Positions 7,212-54,377 of a stretch of 54,910 bases of DNA are shown here, piece after piece; the stretch's first letter is position 1; every line of letters starts with the position of its first letter. Made by a program: the position numbers and the translations under genes. Origin of the DNA: Promethearchaeati archaeon (GTDB lineage: Archaea > Asgardarchaeota > Heimdallarchaeia > JABLTI01); contig JABLTI010000007.1 of assembly GCA_013166835.1 (NCBI GenBank), forward strand, positions 1-54,910. The letters run 5' to 3'. The notes beneath the pieces were generated by a model. The model saw only the letters and a program-made list of their open reading frames with translations, made no database searches and was not told the DNA's origin.

Positions 7212-8279
7212 TCATTTTTTCTTCTTGCTGTCGATTTGTGCTTGAGCAATTTTCTGGAAACCGATAGCATTTGCTAATACAGGATCTTCCGGGACAATTA
7301 CCTCTTCTGGTGATTGTACTACATTGTTTTCGGTTAGAATATTTTTCATTCGTTCACCAAAGACTTCAGCACCGCCACCAGTTAGAATGACTTTTTCAAT
7401 CCAAGCATCGGGTGGGAGGGTACCAAGTAAGGTTGATAATTCATCCACTATGATGTCTGCAATTGAATTGACATAATAAGTGAGGGTTTCAGAAATATCA
7501 TATTGCTCTCCTGCTACCATTACATTCTTTCTTCCAATCTCTATGGATTTTATCAATTCAAATGGTCGCAAAATCTTCCCTGTTTGCTGATTCAAGTTGC
7601 TAGCAATTCTTTCAGCAAGGGTTGTTATTGATTCTTGTACACTTCCACTTGCTGTTCGCATTAGTCTACCTTCATAAACAGTAAGAATATTTGTTGCACC
7701 AGCTCCGATATCCACAACTACTGCATCAACTGCTCTTTGTTCACCAGATGATTTCAGGATTTCATAATAAGATCCATAACAAACTGGCATTACTAAGCAT
7801 TGGTCTATCTTAAGGTTGATTTGTTTTTCTTCCCCTGTTGCATCATTTGCAACATTTATTGTCATAGCTCCTTTCAGACCCTTACTTAAAGTTACCATTT
7901 CATCTTGAGGACTAGCAACTGGCACTCCAGTAGCAACTATAAAATTACCATAGTCCTTTTCTACGAAATTCGAAAGAGCTGCTTTTATTGCTATGATTGC
8001 ATCTTTCAAGCTTTTCATTTTACCTTTATCTGCTAATGGTCGTTTTATTTCGCTTTGTAATCTTGCTAATTCTCCTACGAAATATTTCTTCCCATCATCA
8101 GTTTGTAGCATAAGATTATTTATCCAAGATTTATCAGTCCCTAATCCTTTCCATCCAGGATTTGGATCACCAACTAAACTTGGAATTTTTATAATCTTTT
8201 TACCACCAGGTCCTACTAGTTTTGTTATGCTCGTACCAAGATCTATTCCGATTGCCATTGTATCGCTTTTTTTGGACAA
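7212..8279 (-). CDS. ParM/StbA-like actin-fold ATPase
   Basis: Phosphate-1 IDLGTSITK, VGELA, TGVP, phosphate-2 VDIGAGATN, adenosine ILTGGGA, DP..ANA.G. Confidence 0.85.
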   Translation of the reverse strand: MSKKSDTMAIGIDLGTSITKLVGPGGKKIIKIPSLVGDPNPGWKGLGTDKSWINNLMLQTDDGKKYFVGELARLQSEIKRPLADKGKMKSLKDAIIAIKAALSNFVEKDYGNFIVATGVPVASPQDEMVTLSKGLKGAMTINVANDATGEEKQINLKIDQCLVMPVCYGSYYEILKSSGEQRAVDAVVVDIGAGATNILTVYEGRLMRTASGSVQESITTLAERIASNLNQQTGKILRPFELIKSIEIGRKNVMVAGEQYDISETLTYYVNSIADIIVDELSTLLGTLPPDAWIEKVILTGGGAEVFGERMKNILTENNVVQSPEEVIVPEDPVLANAIGFQKIAQAQIDSKKKK

Positions 8280-8371: not shown

Positions 8372-9733
8372 CTATTGCCCAGCCCGAGGTGTTCTTTGTC
8401 TTCTCCTAGGTCGTCTTCGTTCTGTTTCCTTCTCTTCAGATACTGGGTGAATAATGGGTCTTTGTGCTATTGCTTCCATTCTTCTTGTTGCTCTTTTTTG
8501 GATAAATTGAACAATTAATCCAACGAGTAAGAATAGAACTGCCAAGGGAGCTAAAACCATCATAATCATTTCTGGTTGTCCAGCTTCAATACTATTAATG
8601 ATTGAATCAGGCATATTGAGAAATTGCAGGATTGGTAATGGATTCAATGCAAGCCAGGAAAGTAACAATAATGCTACCATTCTAAATAAGGTGCCTGAGG
8701 TTATAATAAGAATTAATCTAGCCAATGATGGAGTATATGCTGAGGCTGATAATGACACAGCAATCATTGGATCATCTCGTTCAAGTTGCTCGTAATAACT
8801 CTTGAGACGATTATTCATTTTGTCCCAATCCTCATCAGGTGAAATTCTAAACAATTTCTTTCCAACTAAGCCTTTTATTCTTGAGAAAGCTGTACTTACA
8901 GTCATTCTAGCCCTTGACGTGTTTTTACTACCTCGTATACCCATTCTTTCAGGTTCTTCTTCTTCTGTTTCCGGTCTTTCTTTTTTCATTCTCTCTAAAG
9001 GCATCTTGAATTCTCTTATTCTCTTAATATTGCTTGAGATTCTCCTATGTCTATGGATATTAGGACCTATTACATTGTACACGTAACTGGCCTGAAAACT
9101 CAATTCCAATGAGAAGTAAATTAGGAAAGCAGTAATTACTAATTTCGAGAAAATCATTTGAGTGATATTTCCACTACCAAGGTCTATATCAATAAGCAAT
9201 TTCCCACTTAAAGATGCTAAACCAAGAACTATATTCATTCCAAAAAAGGAAACTGCCGATAGTGCGGGATTACATTCTCGTAGGAATCCTAAACCAGCAA
9301 TTAGTGCAATAAATAAGATAATCATAATGAAGAAAGAATAAAGTGGTTCAAAGAGATTTGGTTGAGCAAAAAATTCTAGCGGTTGTAATATAATTTGCTC
9401 AATTTCTACTCCCATGATGGTATCTCCTCCTCCAAAAATTGCTGAATGAAAACTATCCATTAATGCTACAGCTCCAGAATCATCATATCCGAGCATATAG
9501 GCAATTCCATAACCAATTAAGAGAAATAAAATCTCAAAAATGAAGACAAAGAATTTCAAACTATACCAGAATGATTGGAAATTCCAAATGGAAGTATCGA
9601 TTGAGGATATTACTAGCGCAAAACTAGCTATGAAAACTAGAGCAGCAAATACTCGAGTCATGTTTAGGAGATTTCGCATCTTCCTTACTTTATCTGCTTC
9701 AACTCTGGTACCAATTACTTCAGACAAGACCAA
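8372..9733 (-). CDS. Multi-pass membrane protein, hypothetical
   Basis: About 7 hydrophobic helices; overlaps the DUF58 gene end. Confidence 0.75.
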   Translation of the reverse strand: MVLSEVIGTRVEADKVRKMRNLLNMTRVFAALVFIASFALVISSIDTSIWNFQSFWYSLKFFVFIFEILFLLIGYGIAYMLGYDDSGAVALMDSFHSAIFGGGDTIMGVEIEQIILQPLEFFAQPNLFEPLYSFFIMIILFIALIAGLGFLRECNPALSAVSFFGMNIVLGLASLSGKLLIDIDLGSGNITQMIFSKLVITAFLIYFSLELSFQASYVYNVIGPNIHRHRRISSNIKRIREFKMPLERMKKERPETEEEEPERMGIRGSKNTSRARMTVSTAFSRIKGLVGKKLFRISPDEDWDKMNNRLKSYYEQLERDDPMIAVSLSASAYTPSLARLILIITSGTLFRMVALLLLSWLALNPLPILQFLNMPDSIINSIEAGQPEMIMMVLAPLAVLFLLVGLIVQFIQKRATRRMEAIAQRPIIHPVSEEKETERRRPRRRQRTPRAGQ

Positions 9734-11117
9734 TACCTCTCCTTTTTGCTTCTATATATTCATTAATTACAGATATCAGGAAATCATCTGGTCCTACAGA
9801 AATAACGCCTGCTCTGTATCGTTGGATATCTCTACTCAAACTTGATCTAATATCATAATATTCCTCTGCAATTGCTTCTCCTAATGCTTTTTCAGTTGGA
9901 CCTAATCGGGTATTCTGAATTTCAAAGAAGGGTCCAAATGGTGATATAATTATTACATCAAATCCAGCTGCAGATGCCTTACGAATTCCATCAAGAATAT
10001 CTTTCTTCTTTCCTTCGAGATCTGTAATAATTAGTAGTAATCCTCTACTTCTTGTACGCATTATTAGGTTCTGAACTGCTCTTGTAAGATAGGAGGGCCC
10101 TCTCGGTGTTACATAAGCAAGGTCTTCAATGATTCTATTGAATTGGGTAGTTCCATGACTGGGAGAAATAAATGTATTAACTTTGCTATTGAAAGTTGCT
10201 AGACCAATCATATCTTTTCTTTCTTGAGCCATATGGGATAATAATACTACTGCACGAATGCTAAATTCTAGTTTAGTATTTCGTATTAATCCTTGATCCA
10301 TGCTTTGAGAAGTATCTAGTAAAATCATTACACGGATATTTTTCTCAGTTTCAAATTCTCTGATTTGTAATTTATTTGTTCTACTGAATGCTTTCCAATC
10401 AATGTATCTAAAAGCATCTTCTGGAAAATAATCGCGAATTCCCCAAAATTCCATGCCTGTACCTTTTAGTTTGGTTTTATGCATTCCAAACATTTTTCCT
10501 AGCTGTCTTTTTGCGCCTAGGGTTTTTAACTTCTTAATATCTTCATATGAGGGATAAACTAGCACTTCATCAAAATCTTGTTTTATTGTCTCCTCTTCAT
10601 AGAATCCTAATCGATCATGAATTATGACTTTTGTTGGTCCAACTTTGAATAATCCTCTTACTGGAGTTCTAAGAATGTAGGAGAATTCTGCTTTTGCATT
10701 AGCATTTATTCTTGTGTAGAGATAATTTTCTCCAAGAACCAGATCCATTGTTTCGGGGTATGCATCATATATTTCTAGATGATCTATGGCATTTGGTCCT
10801 TTATTCTGAACAGTTATTCTCACATGAATATATTCTCCTGCAAAACATTTTCTTTTATCTAGAACTCGATTAACAGTTATTCCTTCTGTATTTGCTTGTA
10901 TCCGAAAGATTGGATAGCCAAAAGTAGTTCCTATTACCATTAAAATTCCGATTAATAGAAAGTAAGTGACAATAATATCTGAGATTCCATATGCTAATGG
11001 TTGTTCCATAAAGAGAATGACTATTTCAAAAACAGGTACAATTCCTTCTAGGGCTAGACCTATTGATATCATAAATAGTCCTCCGAAAAGGATAAATGAT
11101 CCTCTTTTTGAAATCAT
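9720..11117 (-). CDS. DUF58/vWA domain protein with N-terminal TMs
   Basis: RG...GP, G.EF..IRDY...D..R.IDWKA, LDTSQSM (MIDAS-like). Confidence 0.9.
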   Translation of the reverse strand: MISKRGSFILFGGLFMISIGLALEGIVPVFEIVILFMEQPLAYGISDIIVTYFLLIGILMVIGTTFGYPIFRIQANTEGITVNRVLDKRKCFAGEYIHVRITVQNKGPNAIDHLEIYDAYPETMDLVLGENYLYTRINANAKAEFSYILRTPVRGLFKVGPTKVIIHDRLGFYEEETIKQDFDEVLVYPSYEDIKKLKTLGAKRQLGKMFGMHKTKLKGTGMEFWGIRDYFPEDAFRYIDWKAFSRTNKLQIREFETEKNIRVMILLDTSQSMDQGLIRNTKLEFSIRAVVLLSHMAQERKDMIGLATFNSKVNTFISPSHGTTQFNRIIEDLAYVTPRGPSYLTRAVQNLIMRTRSRGLLLIITDLEGKKKDILDGIRKASAAGFDVIIISPFGPFFEIQNTRLGPTEKALGEAIAEEYYDIRSSLSRDIQRYRAGVISVGPDDFLISVINEYIEAKRRGIGLV

Positions 11118-11175
11118 TTCTTACTACAACCTATTTTGCTTGATATAGTTAATTTACCATTTTTTCTTAGTTCAG

Positions 11176-12192
11176 TTACCTTTGTGCTCTTACTTCTTTG
11201 ATTGGTATTTCTCTAATTATGTCCCTTATTATGGATTGAGAAGATATTCCTTCCAAATCAGCTTCAGGTTTGAGAATAAGTCGATGATATACAGCATCAA
11301 TTGCTATTCTCTTAATATCATCAGGAACGACATAATCACGACCAGAAATAGCAGCATATGCTTTTGATGTGTTTAACATAGAAATACTTGCTCTAGGACT
11401 ACCACCTAATAACAAGCGCGGATCAGTTCGTGTTCTTATTGTAATATCTCGGATAAATTCTATGATGCCTTGATCTACATAGATATTTTCCCTTACAATT
11501 TTCTGTAATCGAATAATTGTTTCTGGAGTAGTAATTTCATTAAGTGTGTTATCCTCTGGTTGATGTTTCAGTTGAATGATTTTTTCCTCTTCAACGGGAT
11601 TTGGTAATCCAACTACAGATTTCAATAAAAACCTGTCAAGTTGTGCTTCAGGTAAAGGATAAGTTCCTTCTTGTTCAATTGGATTCATTGTTGCAATGAC
11701 AATGAACGGTGAGGATAAAGGATAGGTATTTCCTTCTATTGATACTTGCCTTTCAGCCATTGCTTCTAATAGAGCACTTTGTGTTTTTGGTGGCGCTCTA
11801 TTTATTTCATCTGCAAGAAGAATATTTGTAAAAATTGGTCCTCTTCTTAGTTTGAAGGTTCCTGAACGTTGGTCAAACACATTGGTTCCAAGTACATCTG
11901 AAGGTAACAAATCTGGTGTGAATTGTACACGTTTGTACTTGCATCCTAGCGTTGCAGCAAAGAGCTTTGCTAAAGTTGTTTTGGCAATCCCTGGAACACC
12001 TTCAAGAAGTATATGTCCATCACATAGTAAGCTAAGAATCAAGTTATGTACTATATTCTTCATCCCTACAATGTGTCTTGATAATTCATCTTGGATGCTT
12101 TTTGCTATTCTTTCCACATCCGACACATTGACAAGTGAATCACCACGTGATGCTTTCTTGTCTGGCGGAGGTGGTGGAACGAATTCTGACAT
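11176..12192 (-). CDS. moxR: MoxR family AAA+ ATPase
   Basis: GVPGIAKT, QFTPDLLPSD, DEINRAPPKTQSALLEAM, YPLPEAQLDRF, GSPRA. Confidence 0.95.
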   Translation of the reverse strand: MSEFVPPPPPDKKASRGDSLVNVSDVERIAKSIQDELSRHIVGMKNIVHNLILSLLCDGHILLEGVPGIAKTTLAKLFAATLGCKYKRVQFTPDLLPSDVLGTNVFDQRSGTFKLRRGPIFTNILLADEINRAPPKTQSALLEAMAERQVSIEGNTYPLSSPFIVIATMNPIEQEGTYPLPEAQLDRFLLKSVVGLPNPVEEEKIIQLKHQPEDNTLNEITTPETIIRLQKIVRENIYVDQGIIEFIRDITIRTRTDPRLLLGGSPRASISMLNTSKAYAAISGRDYVVPDDIKRIAIDAVYHRLILKPEADLEGISSQSIIRDIIREIPIKEVRAQR

Positions 12193-12271
12193 TTTTTTTA
12201 TACCCCGAATTTTTTGTTTTTTTTTTTATGTTTTTTATTTTACATCTTTTTGATGATCGTAATTTTTTTGA

Positions 12272-13771
12272 CTAACCTTGAGTTTTTGTTATTAATTCCT
12301 CAACATTTTTGAGGTCAAGAACTAGGTCAGTAAATTCCTCTTCAGAAATCCTTCTTGATTTCTGTATAATCAAATCAACACGCGTAAGCATCTTTACAAC
12401 ATCTTCTAGATTGAATTGATTTGGAAAATGATTATCTAATAGCTCTACAATTTTTTCTGAGCTTAATTCCTCAGTTACAGCATATTTCTTTATCAAACGT
12501 CTTTTCAATCTCTTATATATTAAATCAAGAGCATTCGAAAATTGTTGATAAGTCATATACCAGGTCATTTTTGCTGCGAAGAACGATCGAGACCTACTTT
12601 GTTTTACTTTGGTCATTAATAATGGAGAAGGTCCTTTTGATTTTGGATATCGTCTCCTCAAAAACATGAACGTTATAAATGGAAATAAGGGAGCTAGTAA
12701 AGGAAACATAGTAAATGAATTAACATAACGAAGATACATTCTGACGTATTCAAAAGGATCAATAATTCCTAGTGCGAATCTACCGGTTCTAGATGAGGAA
12801 AGATGTGATTCATCATAATAAATTCTGCGAGTGCTGTTAAAATCTAACCAATTAAAGACATTACTTGCTAATTGGGCATTATCATAACCAAGTTCCATTA
12901 ATTCATTTATGAAAATACTTGGATCAGAACAAACTAGGATATTACCAACACCGACACCGCCTAAAGGTATCGGTACCATAAGTGAAAAGGAACCCTTCCA
13001 TTCATCATCATCAGGATAATAATCACCATCCTTAGCGTTCTCTACATCCTTTTCAAGCCAAGAAAAATCTGATGACATAGCTATTCCGGAAGCAATTGGT
13101 ATACCAGATATGGAGAGTCGAGGATACCATTGAGTTTCTCCAGTATCATTATCTACGCCCAAAAATGATATGGATGATGGAAAACTCGTAACTACTCGAT
13201 TCACACCACTCATTGAGGCAGAACCCGGAAATTCAGGAAAGTTTCTAATTACAGGCATTACTGGGCTTACATGATAAGAATAAGCATCCATTAGAAGAGA
13301 CCCGTTAATTTTCATTCCAGCGATTGGTAGAGTACTAAACCCAATTGCAGATGCATTTATTTGGCTAATAAAAGGAGCGATTACAGTATTAACTAATCCA
13401 AGAATATCATTCGCTCTTCCAAAATCATCAGCAATTATTACACTACCTCCACGCATAATGAAATATGCTAGAGCAGCAGTTTCAGTGGGATCAAAAAATA
13501 TTGTTGGTCCTATGATGGCCAAGACACCCATTTCATTACCATCAAGTCTTGTTAAAGAATTCAAAGTGGAAACAACTGGATGAAACTCAAATCCTTCGCC
13601 CTCAAGATTTTCTCGGAGAGTACTAGTCCCATCCCAATACTCATTATATATTGAGAACTGTCTAGTCCCTTCTTGACCAATCCTAGTTACAGATAAGATT
13701 ATTGGCAAACAAAATATAATGAAGATAATTGATAAGATGAATGTATTTCGATTAAATTTTATTTTAGCCAT
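12272..13771 (-). CDS. DUF4350-like membrane protein
   Basis: FSIYN..WDGTS, GG..IIADDFG, SDPSIFIN, YDESH; typical MoxR operon context. Confidence 0.8.
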   Translation of the reverse strand: MAKIKFNRNTFILSIIFIIFCLPIILSVTRIGQEGTRQFSIYNEYWDGTSTLRENLEGEGFEFHPVVSTLNSLTRLDGNEMGVLAIIGPTIFFDPTETAALAYFIMRGGSVIIADDFGRANDILGLVNTVIAPFISQINASAIGFSTLPIAGMKINGSLLMDAYSYHVSPVMPVIRNFPEFPGSASMSGVNRVVTSFPSSISFLGVDNDTGETQWYPRLSISGIPIASGIAMSSDFSWLEKDVENAKDGDYYPDDDEWKGSFSLMVPIPLGGVGVGNILVCSDPSIFINELMELGYDNAQLASNVFNWLDFNSTRRIYYDESHLSSSRTGRFALGIIDPFEYVRMYLRYVNSFTMFPLLAPLFPFITFMFLRRRYPKSKGPSPLLMTKVKQSRSRSFFAAKMTWYMTYQQFSNALDLIYKRLKRRLIKKYAVTEELSSEKIVELLDNHFPNQFNLEDVVKMLTRVDLIIQKSRRISEEEFTDLVLDLKNVEELITKTQG

Positions 13772-32889: not shown

Positions 32890-33885
32890 ATGAAGATATT
32901 TTTTGATGAAACCCAAAAAGAACGTGGCAAAATTAATACTAATTATTCCATTCTTCGTGATTCTTTAAGAAGCGAAGGTCTAGAGGTTGAGGTATATAAT
33001 GATTTTCCTATTTCAGAAAAATCATTAAAATGTGATGTTTTTGTTTTCGCTTGTCCTGATGGTTCCAAGCTAGGAAAGAATGAGATTGATGCTCTCTCTG
33101 ATTTTGTAGAAAAAGGTGGAGGGTTATTAATAATTGGAAACGCAGGTGGAGATAGAGGTTTACGTACTAATATGAATGAAATTTTAAATAAATTCGGTAT
33201 TGAGATGCTTTCTGATCAAGTAAAGGATGAAGCTAGTAATGAATTTAATATGCCCACTCATCCAGTGATTAATGATGTAAAGGATCATCCAATAGGCAAT
33301 GGTGTTGCTGAGATAGTAATAGTGGCAGGATGTTCTGTTAGAGGTTCTACTAATATGAAGGGTATTGCCTACACTTCACCATCTGCTGAACCTCCAAATG
33401 CCCCTGTTTTAGTAGCGGGAGATTTCAAACAAGGGAGAGTAGTAGCAATAGGATCATATCGTTTATTCTCTAATTATGGTGCCGGACTTTCTCTAAGAAA
33501 TAATCGCACATTTGCAATGAATATTTTCAGATGGCTTGGACGTCTTGATACAGGGAAAGCCCCTTCAGTTGCAGTTAAAAAGGAAGCCAAAATTGGTGCA
33601 ATAGTTCTTCCAAAGACAGAACCAGTTGCTACAGATATGAAACCATCATCAATTCCACCACCACCACCTCCAACAACAACAGCAGCTCCGAGTTCAACAA
33701 CACAAAGTCAGCCAATTGCCGCTGGTGATCAAAACGTTTTACAAGAGATTGAGCGTTTGCGATCTGAAATTTCTGAAATGAGAGAAATCATTGCACGTCT
33801 TTATTCCGATTCTTTAGGTTATTTACAAGAAATGAAAGAAGAAGTTCGTTCAATGCTTGATTATATTAGAACAAAAGAAGGATAA
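32890..33885 (+). CDS. GIFT-domain (GldG/IFT52-like) protein with polyproline linker and C-terminal coiled coil
   Basis: IFFD..QKE, EIDAL..FV..GG.LL..G..GG....TN.N..L..FGI; PPPPPP. Confidence 0.7.
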   Translation: MKIFFDETQKERGKINTNYSILRDSLRSEGLEVEVYNDFPISEKSLKCDVFVFACPDGSKLGKNEIDALSDFVEKGGGLLIIGNAGGDRGLRTNMNEILNKFGIEMLSDQVKDEASNEFNMPTHPVINDVKDHPIGNGVAEIVIVAGCSVRGSTNMKGIAYTSPSAEPPNAPVLVAGDFKQGRVVAIGSYRLFSNYGAGLSLRNNRTFAMNIFRWLGRLDTGKAPSVAVKKEAKIGAIVLPKTEPVATDMKPSSIPPPPPPTTTAAPSSTTQSQPIAAGDQNVLQEIERLRSEISEMREIIARLYSDSLGYLQEMKEEVRSMLDYIRTKEG

Positions 33886-41923: not shown

Positions 41924-42511
41924 ATGAGTACTGAAGTTGAAATTTTAATCAAGAATTTATTGAGGGGAATAAAGTCCATACTTAAGCGACGAGGATATAA
42001 AGTAATTACCGAAGAACGATTCGAACATTATATTGATTTAATCTGTGAATTGGAAAAAGATACCTCGCAAGAAATGTTTGCTACCATTTCTTTAGAGGAA
42101 AAAGTAGGAGTATCAGTTCTACGAGATTATGTTAAGAGATTCGAACAAAGGAAAGAAGAAAAAGGAGAAGAAAATGTTAAAGGATTACTTGTTGCTTCAA
42201 ATCGTTTTACTCACTATGCAAGAAGAGAAGCAAAAGAAAAGGGTATCTGGATTATTACAAGTAAGGATCCCCGGTTTGATATTTTTACCCATAATCTAGT
42301 TCCAGAACACGTTATTTGTCCTGAAGAGGAATTAAAGGGATTATTAGAGAAATACAATATTAAGAGAAGACATTTACCAAAAATCTTTGCAAGTGATCCA
42401 GCTGTTAAAGCTGTAGGAGCTAAACCTGGGCAAGTAGTAAAGATATTCAGACATAGTGAAGTTGCGGGAGAATCCATAGCTTATCGTTTGGTGGTAAGAA
42501 GAGAAAGTTAG
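41924..42511 (+). CDS. rpoH: RNA polymerase subunit Rpo5/RpoH with N-terminal extension
   Basis: H.LVPEH, LPKI..SDP, G.VVKI.R.S..AG....YR.V. Confidence 0.92.
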
Positions 42512-51756: not shown

Positions 51757-52197
51757 TTACTCAGCTTCAAGAATAGATATATCTAATCCTGTTATTCCTT
51801 CAATTGCCAGTATTTCAGTTTTTAAATTCTCAACATCTATTTTTTTAAATTCTTCTGAATCAATGTATCCGTCAAAAACACATTTTTCTTCCATAAAACA
51901 AAGTCCTGTTGAATAAAGTGCCTTGACTCCTAACTTTAAGAAGAGGTTACCAATTCTCCTGAGGAAATCTGGTGTAAGCTTTCCAATATCAATTGCAACT
52001 TTGTATACTTTGTTTGTTGTAGTTGGGATAATTCGGATTATTTTTGTGTTCGGAGTAAGTATAATTACTGCATAATTTCCTGCTTCCGGTTTTAATGCAT
52101 CCAAGAATTCGTCTGTTAATTGAAGAGATTTCATTGGTTCCAGCTTGTGCATTTTTGCAATAGTTATTTTTGGAATTTGCTTGCTTTTTTTCACCAT
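51757..52197 (-). CDS. Hypothetical ACT-like protein
   Basis: YSTGLC....CVFDG; similar to 45945-46358. Confidence 0.7.
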   Translation of the reverse strand: MVKKSKQIPKITIAKMHKLEPMKSLQLTDEFLDALKPEAGNYAVIILTPNTKIIRIIPTTTNKVYKVAIDIGKLTPDFLRRIGNLFLKLGVKALYSTGLCFMEEKCVFDGYIDSEEFKKIDVENLKTEILAIEGITGLDISILEAE

Positions 52198-52306: not shown

Positions 52307-53308
52307 CTACAAAGTTTGACTTTTGATGATTTTTGGAGCACTCGCTACTTTGAATTCATAATATTTCCACTGATATTTTGACAAGTATTTCGTTACTGTT
52401 TTTGCAAAGGTATCTATTGTAGCAATGGTAACTAGATTCCCACCACCAATGAGATAATATGCTTCGATTTTCTCCCTTCGCATTTGTGTAACTTGTCCAC
52501 ATAATCTCAACATATCAGGTTTCCTAACACTGATATTTATTCCCTCAAGTAGTTCATGAGCATTTTGGATGTTTTCTTCTGCAGTTTTTAAGAGTTCAAC
52601 TAGCTCGTCATTTTTAAGAGCTTTTTTTATCCGATCAACCCAATTTGGTATTTGCTTCACTCTTTCAGGGAATTGTGGATTTTTTATTATACCAGCATGG
52701 ATCTCATCTGCTGAAATTCTTGAATCATATTGAAAGGGAACCGAGAACAGCTTAATTCTATTCAAGTCTTCTTCAGATGCAAGTTGGATTACTTTTAATG
52801 GTTTTTCATTAACCAATGTTAAAGTTAAACCACCATATAGACTTCTCCCTGCGCTTTCAGAACCTTTCATTGAATATCTAAGAATATCATCTTTTGAATA
52901 TTTGAGATCAAAAACGTCATTCAAAGCTATAAATAAAGCAGCTAAGCCAGAGTCAGAACTTCCACTAAAAATCCCATAATTATTTGATTTAATTTTGATT
53001 TTTGCTTTTATGTTATTTTTTTCCATTAATGATTTAACGGATTCGATGATTTGTTTCCCACGTAAACCAGTTAATTCTTGTTTATCTAAAAGAAATTTAA
53101 TAGGAGAGATGTCCTTGTCTTCAGTGGATTCTACTGTTGTCTCGGTTCTTGTTGTTTCATCCATATTTGTAACTGCTAATCCCATTGTATCATAAAGTGG
53201 TGTTCGATCAGGATTTATTCCACCAAGAAATATAATAGGAATAGTGGGATATGCAACAACTGTGGAAATTTTCTGTATTTTTACCACCACATGAAGTATT
53301 GAAATCAA
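52307..53308 (-). CDS. GHMP kinase, mevalonate 3-kinase-like (Thermoplasma type)
   Basis: AYPTI..I.LGG....RTPL, SGSSD.G.A, SESAGRSL.GG. Confidence 0.8.
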   Translation of the reverse strand: MISILHVVVKIQKISTVVAYPTIPIIFLGGINPDRTPLYDTMGLAVTNMDETTRTETTVESTEDKDISPIKFLLDKQELTGLRGKQIIESVKSLMEKNNIKAKIKIKSNNYGIFSGSSDSGLAALFIALNDVFDLKYSKDDILRYSMKGSESAGRSLYGGLTLTLVNEKPLKVIQLASEEDLNRIKLFSVPFQYDSRISADEIHAGIIKNPQFPERVKQIPNWVDRIKKALKNDELVELLKTAEENIQNAHELLEGINISVRKPDMLRLCGQVTQMRREKIEAYYLIGGGNLVTIATIDTFAKTVTKYLSKYQWKYYEFKVASAPKIIKSQTL

Positions 53309-54120
53309 GTTTTGCGTTCATTTATGATTTCATCTATTAATTTAATTTGTTTTGTATAATCTTTCATTTCATTTAGTGATTTGATCCGTTTCAATACATA
53401 ATCTAAAATGAATTCAAATCCTTCAACGAAATCATTTACATTGATTATCTGAAGTTTATGTTTGGTTGCTTCTGAACAAAGATATTCTTGGATTTGGAAA
53501 TATTTGTCTATTTCAGTGATAAGCCGTTCACCAATGCTAGGATGTACCAACAAATCAGAATGTATTTGCGTTGGCAAGAAATGGAGATATTCAACAATCA
53601 TACTTTCTCCGTCTCTCAATCCCCGATCAGCAATCATCTTTTGAATAGTGAAATTCATTATTTTCGCTTGAGATTTATACCCTGAAATTAAATTTTCTTT
53701 GCTATAATTCCCGAAAAATTTCCAGGTATCATATACACTAGAATGAAGCACTTCATTATCAATTTTTGGCATTATAGATCGCAGAGTAGAACGAAGAGCA
53801 TCACCACCAATAACCAATCCAATATTAAGCGCTGTTGAGAGTTCTTTAGCAATAGTTGTTTTTCCTGCTCCAGGGATACCTGCAATAATTGGTATCATTG
53901 GAAGTTTCTGTAAGCCTGTTTCTGCCAATGTTCGATATTCTCTAATTATAAGATATCTTGTAAGGTATTTGGTACCCAGCTTTTCCAATGATTGCTGTAA
54001 TTCCGCTTCAGAACTGCTTTTAACAAGAAGTTTACTTAATACCTTCAGTGGAAGACCAGTAGCTAGGAGATTTGAGTCACTATTCCAAAAGATCATTATC
54101 ATACCAACAGATTCTTTCAT
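53305..54120 (-). CDS. 2-phosphoglycerate kinase-family P-loop kinase (mevalonate-3-phosphate 5-kinase-like)
   Basis: GIPGAGKTT, D.LR..LR, LH.S.Y..W, IVEY.HF.P; overlaps the GHMP gene. Confidence 0.72.
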   Translation of the reverse strand: MKESVGMIMIFWNSDSNLLATGLPLKVLSKLLVKSSSEAELQQSLEKLGTKYLTRYLIIREYRTLAETGLQKLPMIPIIAGIPGAGKTTIAKELSTALNIGLVIGGDALRSTLRSIMPKIDNEVLHSSVYDTWKFFGNYSKENLISGYKSQAKIMNFTIQKMIADRGLRDGESMIVEYLHFLPTQIHSDLLVHPSIGERLITEIDKYFQIQEYLCSEATKHKLQIINVNDFVEGFEFILDYVLKRIKSLNEMKDYTKQIKLIDEIINERKT

Positions 54121-54377
54121 ATTAAGGGAATTATTAGTGTAAATATATCTTCCCTCAATCTAAAACTTTCGTAGGAATTGTAAAAAATATCAATTACTTC
54201 TTTATCAGCAAAATTCCCTAATCTTAGTAAAATATCATCATGTCCATCTTCAAAATCTGGATTATTTAACATACTAATTAATAATTCAGAATCATTTCTC
54301 TCTACTGCATCATCCAGTGATTTTTTCCAATTTTTTAATTTCCTATAATCTTCAGTTATTTTTTTTATGAATCCCAT
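54117..54377 (-). CDS. Small hypothetical protein
   Basis: GGTGG SD; 4-nt overlap with the kinase gene. Confidence 0.55.
   Translation of the reverse strand: MGFIKKITEDYRKLKNWKKSLDDAVERNDSELLISMLNNPDFEDGHDDILLRLGNFADKEVIDIFYNSYESFRLREDIFTLIIPLI

Follow-up and report, generated by a model that had tools for sequence, protein, structure and literature searches.

In the present study, we analysed 54,910 nucleotides (nt) of archaeal DNA (positions 1 to 54,910 of contig JABLTI010000007.1, assembly GCA_013166835.1; hereafter the window), in which two adjacent genes on the minus strand encode a GHMP protein resembling mevalonate 3-kinase (M3K) and a P-loop kinase of the family that contains mevalonate-3-phosphate 5-kinase (M3P5K) and 2-phosphoglycerate kinase (2PGK). 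A preliminary description of the window, which was made from the sequence alone, had recognized this pair and taken it to suggest the mevalonate-3,5-bisphosphate route of Thermoplasma in a probable Asgard archaeon. The features concerned are as follows.

52307..53308, minus strand: mevalonate-3-kinase-like gene of the GHMP/MDD family; 333 amino acids (aa) from TTG; likely start GTG at 53290 or 53287

53305..54120, minus strand: P-loop kinase gene of the M3P5K/2PGK family, upstream of the M3K-like gene; 271 aa as assembled; likely start at the second ATG, 54096

53532..53533, no strand: junction at which the assembled kinase gene is short of 87 nt, equal to 29 codons, as judged from alignments with the protein and DNA of relatives and from Logan contigs

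Both genes were found in the list of open reading frames (ORFs) of the window at the positions given in the preliminary description, the M3K-like ORF opening with TTG and the kinase ORF with ATG, and as called they share 4 nt. Since residues 1-10 of the M3K-like protein were poorly modelled (pLDDT 65) and its homologues begin near residue 9-11, the true start of this gene is probably a GTG at codon 7 or 8. The overlap noted previously thus holds for the ORFs as called and may give way to a gap of 14-17 nt. The database copy of the kinase is 263 aa long and its relatives begin at MIFW, which makes the second Met the probable start of this protein.

The host belongs to Heimdallarchaeia and is JABLTI01-like. 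The closest named relatives are metagenome-assembled genomes (MAGs) of Candidatus Heimdallarchaeota. Table S1 of PMC11052028 assigns two of these, 12R2_15 and 12F4_9, to JABLTI01 at the levels of order, family, and genus, and the assignment of the window to an Asgard archaeon was thus borne out. The MAG that contains the window has 260 contigs totalling 3.56 Mb, with an estimated completeness of 84.75% and a contamination of 6.79%.

Regarding the M3K-like protein, a phmmer search against all PDB sequences returned Ta1305 (4rkp), the M3K of Thermoplasma acidophilum, as the best match (E 2e-29, 106 bits), a likeness that is far above the chance level by this sequence comparison; each of the decarboxylase chains in the PDB scored 32 bits or less (best E 8.5e-07). 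The four motifs that had previously been attributed to this enzyme, namely AYPTI..LGG, RTPL, SGSSD, and SESAGRSL.GG, are present in both proteins in the phmmer alignment. The protein passes the Pfam models MVD-like_N (66.6 bits) and M3K_C (PF21433, 52.5 bits), the cut-off being 27 for both, and its best NCBIfam model is NF040848 (mevalonate-3-kinase) at 157.1 bits, followed by the decarboxylase models MvaD at 73 bits and DMD at 56 bits. In all 29 M3K-like representatives scanned, NF040848 was the sole family at E <= 1e-30, except in the fusion P0132, which also matched M3P5K and 2PGK. An AlphaFold model of the protein, built from a 28-row alignment, reached a pLDDT of 94.9, and Foldseek placed Ta1305 chains at ranks 1-4 (E 1.3e-32, TM 0.84/0.90).

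The position of this protein was assessed in a 72-row alignment that contained the window protein, the diphosphomevalonate decarboxylase (DMD) of the same genome, 38 M3K-like hits, 11 M3K of the Thermoplasmatales type, 13 further DMD, six phosphomevalonate decarboxylases (PMD), and two proteins resembling bisphosphomevalonate decarboxylase (MBD). These rows were near-full-length, non-redundant sequences drawn from 255 stored proteins, and were labelled by their source names and by scanning 50 of the 150 listed representatives with NCBIfam, the 'heimdall' label of P0047/P0048 being a guess. In the resulting tree (a quick IQ-TREE run with SH-aLRT support and no bootstraps), the 50 M3K-like rows formed one clade (SH-aLRT 99, branch 0.79) that excluded the 14 DMD, six PMD, and two MBD-like rows, and the window protein fell within a Heimdall subclade with an SH-aLRT of 100. 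It did not group with the canonical decarboxylases, in keeping with the preliminary view of this protein as M3K-like.

Individual residues separate the two groups in the same manner. Forty-nine of the 50 M3K-like rows, including that of the window, have the Glu of SES, which none of the 20 DMD and PMD rows has; the D of SGSSD is conserved in 49 of the 50, and the three-residue deletion at SGSSD is common to the window protein and the M3K clade, as is the replacement of the phosphate-binding KYWGK motif by FLGG/LLGG. Arg197 of the window protein, which aligns with Arg185 of Ta1305, is likewise Arg in 49 of the 50 M3K-like rows; the numbering of Arg185 and Thr275 in Ta1305 fits a chain offset of 19 in the 4rkp alignment. 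At the column of the catalytic Asp of the decarboxylases, Asp occurs in 0 of the 50 M3K-like rows versus 14 of the 14 DMD and five of the six PMD. The window protein has Ile287 (HMMER) or Gly288 (MAFFT) there, in a segment, YYLIGGGN (284-291), that contains no acidic residue. In PMC9254496, this Asp is described as conserved in DMD, PMD, and MBD and not in M3K, and its replacement as converting a DMD into a diphosphomevalonate 3-kinase. The assignment of the window protein to the M3K clade, and not to the decarboxylases, is accordingly well supported as a prediction from sequence.

The neighbouring kinase was best matched among NCBIfam models by NF008996 (M3P5K, 115.5 bits), with the 2PGK model at 88.6 bits. 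A PDB search returned only P-loop matches to adenylate kinase 9. Since a full-length relative scored 157 bits with the M3P5K model versus 136.6 bits with the 2PGK model, the family models alone are not decisive. We built a 48-row tree of nine Heimdall and 22 of 23 DPANN kinases linked to M3K (one near-duplicate was dropped), four Thermoplasmatales M3P5K, two of which pass the NF008996 cut-off (268.8 and 252.2 bits), the N-terminal part of P0132, and 12 Heimdall paralogues; it was rooted on these 12 paralogues, which come from other Heimdall genera, with bona fide 2PGK left out. A branch with an SH-aLRT of 100 divided the 36 M3K-linked or Thermoplasmatales kinases from the 12 paralogues. This comparison gives good support for placing the window kinase with M3P5K of the Thermoplasmatales and separately from the 2PGK-like paralogues that other Heimdall genera carry, and the earlier hint of an M3P5K agrees with its position in this clade. 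Across the class, the family is present as a single copy in family f1 (135-154 bits), as two adjacent and divergently oriented paralogues in 45 of the 49 genomes of families f2-f5 (37-98 bits; e.g. L129, L130), and is missing from f6 and f7.

The kinase gene in the window matches only positions 2-113 of the 193 profile positions, and its product has a clean in-frame gap of 29 residues relative to eight of the eight aligned relatives. The DNA alignment places the missing 87 nt between 53532 and 53533. Logan contigs of the sequencing runs X1, X5, and X6 hold 87 extra letters at this junction, the X1 contig that spans it being 27,928 nt long and otherwise identical to the window, with X1 as a possible source of this DNA, and run X9 shows loose ends at 53532/53533 that resemble the segment of the relatives. 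Because contigs of the sequencing runs contain the 87 nt, the gap most likely reflects a fault of assembly or else a minor variant, and, hence, the kinase gene of the organism is probably full length. Among the 22 runs in which the DNA occurs, none is listed as RNA.

Among 83 genomes of the class, the M3K-like gene is present in 11 of the 11 genomes of genus g1 and in none of the 72 others. Nine of 10 genus relatives have the kinase gene immediately upstream of the M3K-like gene and in the same orientation; the tenth has its M3K-like gene at a contig end. The order orf144, DUF460-like, TIM, orf164, orf146, M3K-like, and kinase was kept in all eight of the loci fetched. Two neighbours were considered and set aside. 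The directly downstream orf146 (51757-52197, minus strand; 146 aa) was rejected as a third pathway gene: it is kept in 8/8 relatives (62-92% identity) but has no Pfam family, and the Atlas contains, as look-alikes, hypothetical proteins from across the Asgard archaea and, less closely, proteins with MazE/ACT domains. As for orf86 (54117-54377), 23 of its residues match in only one of the eight loci, and it was not retained as a conserved part of the locus.

A comparison of 80 named loci revealed three arrangements. In nine of 10 Heimdall loci, the kinase is followed by M3K and no decarboxylase gene is closer than 6 kb, the tenth locus being cut at its end; in 23 of 35 loci from DPANN or other archaea, M3K precedes the kinase, and in 19 of these 23 a decarboxylase of the MDD family comes next; and in 35 of 35 Thermoplasmat* loci, M3K stands on its own without the kinase. 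The 547-aa protein P0132, of the Thermoplasmatales type, joins an M3P5K domain that scores 213 bits to an M3K domain at 369 bits. It appears to be a natural fusion but could be a gene-call artefact; it is weak evidence for fusion because it is a singleton from one Logan contig. No fused M3K/M3P5K form of 584 aa or longer was found. In two Thermoplasmatales genomes, M3P5K lies directly beside MBD with M3K elsewhere (G083:C1:736567-738195 and G085:C2:170595-172233; L115/L124 and L112/L128).

Regarding the remaining genes of the pathway, the preliminary description had pointed to MBD and isopentenyl phosphate (IP) kinase as the enzymes to look for. Neither was found. The MBD model NF040847 matched only the DMD of the host genome (38.9 bits versus a cut-off of 560), and no third MDD-family gene above approximately 30 bits was present in the 12 genomes of the family. 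The IP kinase model NF040647 was over its cut-off in 0/12 family genomes, two of which are 90-92% complete; at E <= 1e-20, it matched in 0/12 versus 69/71 other genomes of the class. The host genome has three genes of the AA-kinase fold, which encode a UMP kinase, a carbamate kinase, and an MfnE-like kinase. The last of these (C44:5640-6296) was rejected as a stand-in IP kinase, as it adjoins an MfnF-like gene (TIGR03123, 280.8 bits); the MfnE-like and MfnF-like genes together occupy G000:C44:5640-7384 (L012), and TIGR03123 is named 'probable H4MPT-linked C1 transfer pathway protein'. AcnX is similarly restricted to one of the 12 family genomes versus 65/71 elsewhere in the class. The lineage has lost the archaeal route, as represented by AcnX and IP kinase. 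The sole AcnX-like gene in the family (G081:C44:111373-114145) scored 292 bits versus approximately 400-510 bits for most full-length copies elsewhere in the class. A third GHMP kinase of the MVK/galactokinase-like kind is encoded approximately 600 nt away from this AcnX-like gene, which may be a remnant of that route. A complete Thermoplasma-type route as defined in Thermoplasma, which the pair had been taken to suggest, is consequently not supported.

Other genes of isoprenoid synthesis were found outside the window. HMG-CoA reductase is present in the host genome, and mevalonate can therefore be made. Contig C164 contains the DMD (315.1 bits with TIGR01240, cut-off 171), directly followed by a GHMP kinase that passes the MVK model (196.7 bits with TIGR00549, cut-off 163), and both genes exceed these cut-offs in nine of the 12 family genomes, all of genus g1. 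No further isoprenoid genes were seen in the neighbourhood on C164. Regarding phosphomevalonate kinase (PMK), NF040957 matched only the MVK of the host genome (73 bits versus a cut-off of 500), the animal-type PMK model not having been searched, and TIGR01220 was over its cut-off in none of the 12 family genomes.

The DMD of the host (G000:C164:10087-12069, L137) was compared with the decarboxylases of DPANN clusters in a second 48-row tree that held 15 of the 19 cluster-linked decarboxylases (two partial sequences, one near-duplicate, and one already included as an MBD row were dropped). Its clade, with an SH-aLRT of 98, includes five decarboxylases from DPANN archaea, the genes of which directly follow M3K-like and M3P5K-like genes. 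All seven members of this clade retain KYWGK, the ATP motif, and the catalytic Asp, and all seven have Arg in the catalytic loop, versus Lys in 12 of 12 other DMD representatives and in the cluster-linked enzyme of L065. The gene order is M3K, M3P5K, DMD, and MVK-like in the operons L040 and L051, whereas L065 ends in IP kinase. Four of the five DPANN genomes of this kind contain no IP kinase and three contain a single MVK-family gene, with genome completeness not established. We infer that these four-gene operons suggest a mixed route that is independent of IP kinase.

Taken together, these results lead us to lean, by a modest degree, toward the reading that the two genes form a small M3K-M3P5K operon with the kinase first, the bisphosphate product of which is finished by the enzymes encoded on C164, and this is the most economical reading of the gene content. 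The GHMP protein would act as an ATP-dependent mevalonate 3-kinase, a non-decarboxylating member of the DMD fold, and the P-loop kinase would act as an M3P5K and yield the bisphosphate, with the substrates and products being those predicted from the relatives. Since the lineage is without the ATP-independent MBD and IP kinase, this bisphosphate could not follow the Thermoplasma path to its end; instead, the two enzymes of C164, namely the MVK/PMK-like GHMP kinase and the DMD-type decarboxylase, would give isopentenyl diphosphate (IPP) directly. As a more tentative extension, JABLTI01 and some DPANN archaea may possess a lower mevalonate pathway of a fifth kind, which does without IP kinase and in which three separate kinases (M3K-like, M3P5K-like, and one MVK/PMK-like GHMP kinase) lead step by step to 3-phospho-5-diphosphomevalonate and the Arg-loop DMD-type enzyme eliminates and decarboxylates this compound to IPP.

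Several observations weigh against an operon of M3K and M3P5K whose product is finished by the C164 enzymes. The NF040848 score of the M3K-like protein is far below the equivalog cut-off of 440; in a scan of 50 representatives, one passed this value (537.5 bits) and nine others scored at 345-440 bits. The kinase and its full-length relative, at 115.5-157 bits, are similarly below the NF008996 equivalog cut-off of 250, the 2PGK model comes near the M3P5K model in the full-length kinase, and the kinase carries a 2PGK N-terminal extension of approximately 70 residues that is missing from Thermoplasmatales M3P5K, in addition to the gap in the assembled gene. M3K and M3P5K functions are extrapolated to this clade from Thermoplasmatales. 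Moreover, the DMD of the host keeps the ATP-binding motif together with the Lys and Met that mark diphosphomevalonate specificity, and looks like a normal, ATP-dependent enzyme with no need for a separate 3-kinase. The genus relatives hold one or two further MVK/galactokinase-like GHMP kinases, such that the classical route could be complete and the pair accessory. All of the genomes are MAGs, and, thus, the absences are no proof.

In an alternative reading, IPP is made by the classical eukaryote-type route, consisting of MVK, a PMK that is unrecognised among the extra GHMP kinases, and DMD, while the pair is accessory, provides an alternative, or acts on another 3-hydroxy acid. This is possible, although we consider it doubtful. 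The DMD has the full marks of ATP binding and diphosphate specificity, including KYWGK and Met at the sites altered in the N20K H194M mutant of A. thermophila, and the kinase that passes the MVK model adjoins it; one or two candidates for the middle step are available in each genus genome, and in one relative, a third kinase type lies close to the AcnX-like gene described above. However, no gene reached a PMK cut-off in the searches listed above, and the extra kinases carry a GEHxDY motif, which we take to be galactokinase-like. In three DPANN genomes that carry the same set of four genes, only one MVK-family gene and no IP kinase were detected, and the pair has been retained in every genome of the genus. 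According to PMC9254496, a eukaryote-type route would be expected to go with the loss of IP kinase, whereas MVK is counted as 0 in five of five JABLTI01 MAGs in Table S5 of PMC11052028. A shift in substrates, with the P-loop kinase acting as a non-orthologous PMK or a 2PGK-like enzyme and the M3K-like protein acting on the 3-OH of 5-phosphorylated mevalonate, appears unlikely. It would account for the similar scores of the 2PGK and M3P5K models, the 2PGK-like N-terminal extension, and the lack of a detectable GHMP-type PMK, and the conversion of DMD into a diphosphomevalonate 3-kinase by replacement of its Asp (PMC9254496) provides a precedent. However, in its tree the P-loop kinase sides with M3P5K of the Thermoplasmatales and is separated from the 2PGK-like paralogues found in other Heimdall genera. 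In the M3K-like protein, KYWGK is replaced by FLGG, and the Glu of SES is common to this protein and Ta1305; in structural work on Ta1305, these changes reportedly fit unphosphorylated mevalonate.

It is even less probable that the complete Thermoplasma-type pathway of M3K, M3P5K, MBD, and IP kinase is encoded and that the last two enzymes were missed through gaps in the MAGs or have been replaced by non-homologous proteins. The first two enzymes are present, the MAG of the host is 84.75% complete, and the main text of PMC11052028 places homologues of M3K, M3PK, and MBD in Heimdallarchaeia. In contrast, the only match to the MBD model is the DMD, at 39 of the 560 bits needed, a third MDD-family gene is absent from all 12 family genomes at the level stated above, and the AA-kinase-fold genes of the host have other assignments. 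The absence of IP kinase extends to the two family genomes that are 90-92% complete, against its near-universal presence in the remainder of the class, and Table S5 of the same paper counts MBD 0 and IPK 0 in five of five JABLTI01 MAGs. The reading of the GHMP protein as a canonical decarboxylase (DMD, PMD, or MBD) is very improbable. It has the same fold (TM approximately 0.84 to MDD structures), and some relatives are named mevalonate pyrophosphate decarboxylase by JGI, but no Asp occupies the catalytic position, the protein is outside the decarboxylase clades in the 72-row tree, and decarboxylase models score 56-73 bits versus 157 bits for M3K.

What this lineage retains is the M3K/M3P5K pair together with one MVK/PMK-like kinase and a DMD-type decarboxylase. 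Cooperation among the four, if it occurs, would reveal the connection between the eukaryote-type pathway and that of Thermoplasma, and would provide a new enzyme set for engineered isoprenoid production. A fifth variant, if it is true, would represent a living intermediate between the two routes in the archaeal group nearest eukaryotes. The habitat of these Heimdall-group Asgard archaea with M3K/M3P5K homologues is sediment of neutral pH, not acid (PMC11052028).

The remainder of the window is ordinary archaeal chromosome, with genes for DNA ligase, Pus10, Rpb5, and endonuclease V. The gene at 41924-42511 (plus strand) encodes a 195-aa protein in which the Rpb5 C-terminal domain covers residues 118-190 only and the 117-residue N-terminal part has no Pfam match, and the protein is thus possibly a long form of Rpb5 of the eukaryote-like kind. 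Genes in a row at 9720-13771 (minus strand) encode a MoxR-type AAA ATPase, a DUF58/VWA protein, and a DUF4350/ABC_transp_aux protein; a second DUF4350 protein, encoded at 32890-33885 (plus strand), scores 51.6 bits with the IFT52 GIFT-domain model and thereby also exceeds the cut-off of 27.2 for that model. An archaeal actin-like protein with MreB-like_C and ALP_N domains is encoded at 7212-8279 (minus strand).

The occurrence of M3K and M3P5K in JABLTI01 has already been published: in its main text, PMC11052028 (Microorganisms 2024, 12:707) reports M3K, M3PK, and MBD homologues in Heimdallarchaeia JABLTI01 and DPANN, in MAGs that also contain PMK and DMD. The previous statement that the bisphosphate route is described mainly for Thermoplasmatales is, therefore, out of date. 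In Table S5 of that paper, each of five JABLTI01 MAGs has one M3K, one M3P5K, at least one PMK, and at least one DMD, and none has MVK, IPK, MBD, AcnX, or AMPD. Our gene inventory agrees with these counts except for the DMD-adjacent kinase, which passes the cut-off of the MVK model here and is called PMK in Table S3, where its contig is labelled 'DMD/PMK'. The homologues reported there represent the same pair in the same lineage, those of 12R2_15 (L029) and 12F4_9 (L030) being 89 and 64% identical, respectively, to the M3K-like protein of the window; both of these MAGs also appear in Table S5. The parts of the paper that we consulted are concerned with presence and absence and with trees, and do not extend to residue analyses, gene order, or mechanism. 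No mechanism proposed for the mixed gene set was found in the open-access literature of PubMed Central or bioRxiv.

The closest characterized counterpart of the M3K-like protein is Ta1305 (PDB 4RKP/4RKS/4RKZ; EC 2.7.1.185), with which it shares the fold and which is its best match in sequence and structure. The two have AYPTI..LGG, RTPL, SGSSD, and SESxGRSLxGG in common, as well as the Arg at the position of Arg185 and the absence of the catalytic Asp. They differ in that the window protein is only approximately 25% identical to Ta1305 by Foldseek and approximately 30% over the phmmer alignment, has Ile/Gly at the Thr275 position, and belongs to a separate subclade with DPANN sequences; in addition, the JABLTI01 host is a non-acidophile from sediment metagenomes, and its M3K-like gene is linked to a predicted 5-kinase, unlike the solitary M3K of every Thermoplasmat* locus compared. 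Similarly, the kinase resembles M3P5K of the Ta0762 type (NF008996; EC 2.7.1.186) as a 2PGK-family P-loop kinase for which this is the best family and which stands on the same side of the tree, whereas the window-type kinase is approximately 300 aa long with its N-terminal extension versus approximately 200 aa, is below the cut-off of the model, and is paired with M3K, while the 5-kinase is beside MBD, not M3K, in the two Thermoplasmatales genomes mentioned above. The DPANN clusters (Micrarchaeota, Aenigmatarchaeota, and other archaea) contain the same two kinases, but in the reverse order with M3K first. Another subset of these clusters has a true MBD-type decarboxylase without the ATP motif, and one cluster (L065) has a terminal IP kinase. 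One subset includes the same DMD-type decarboxylase and MVK-like kinase, and brings together in one operon the genes that JABLTI01 keeps as two separate pairs.

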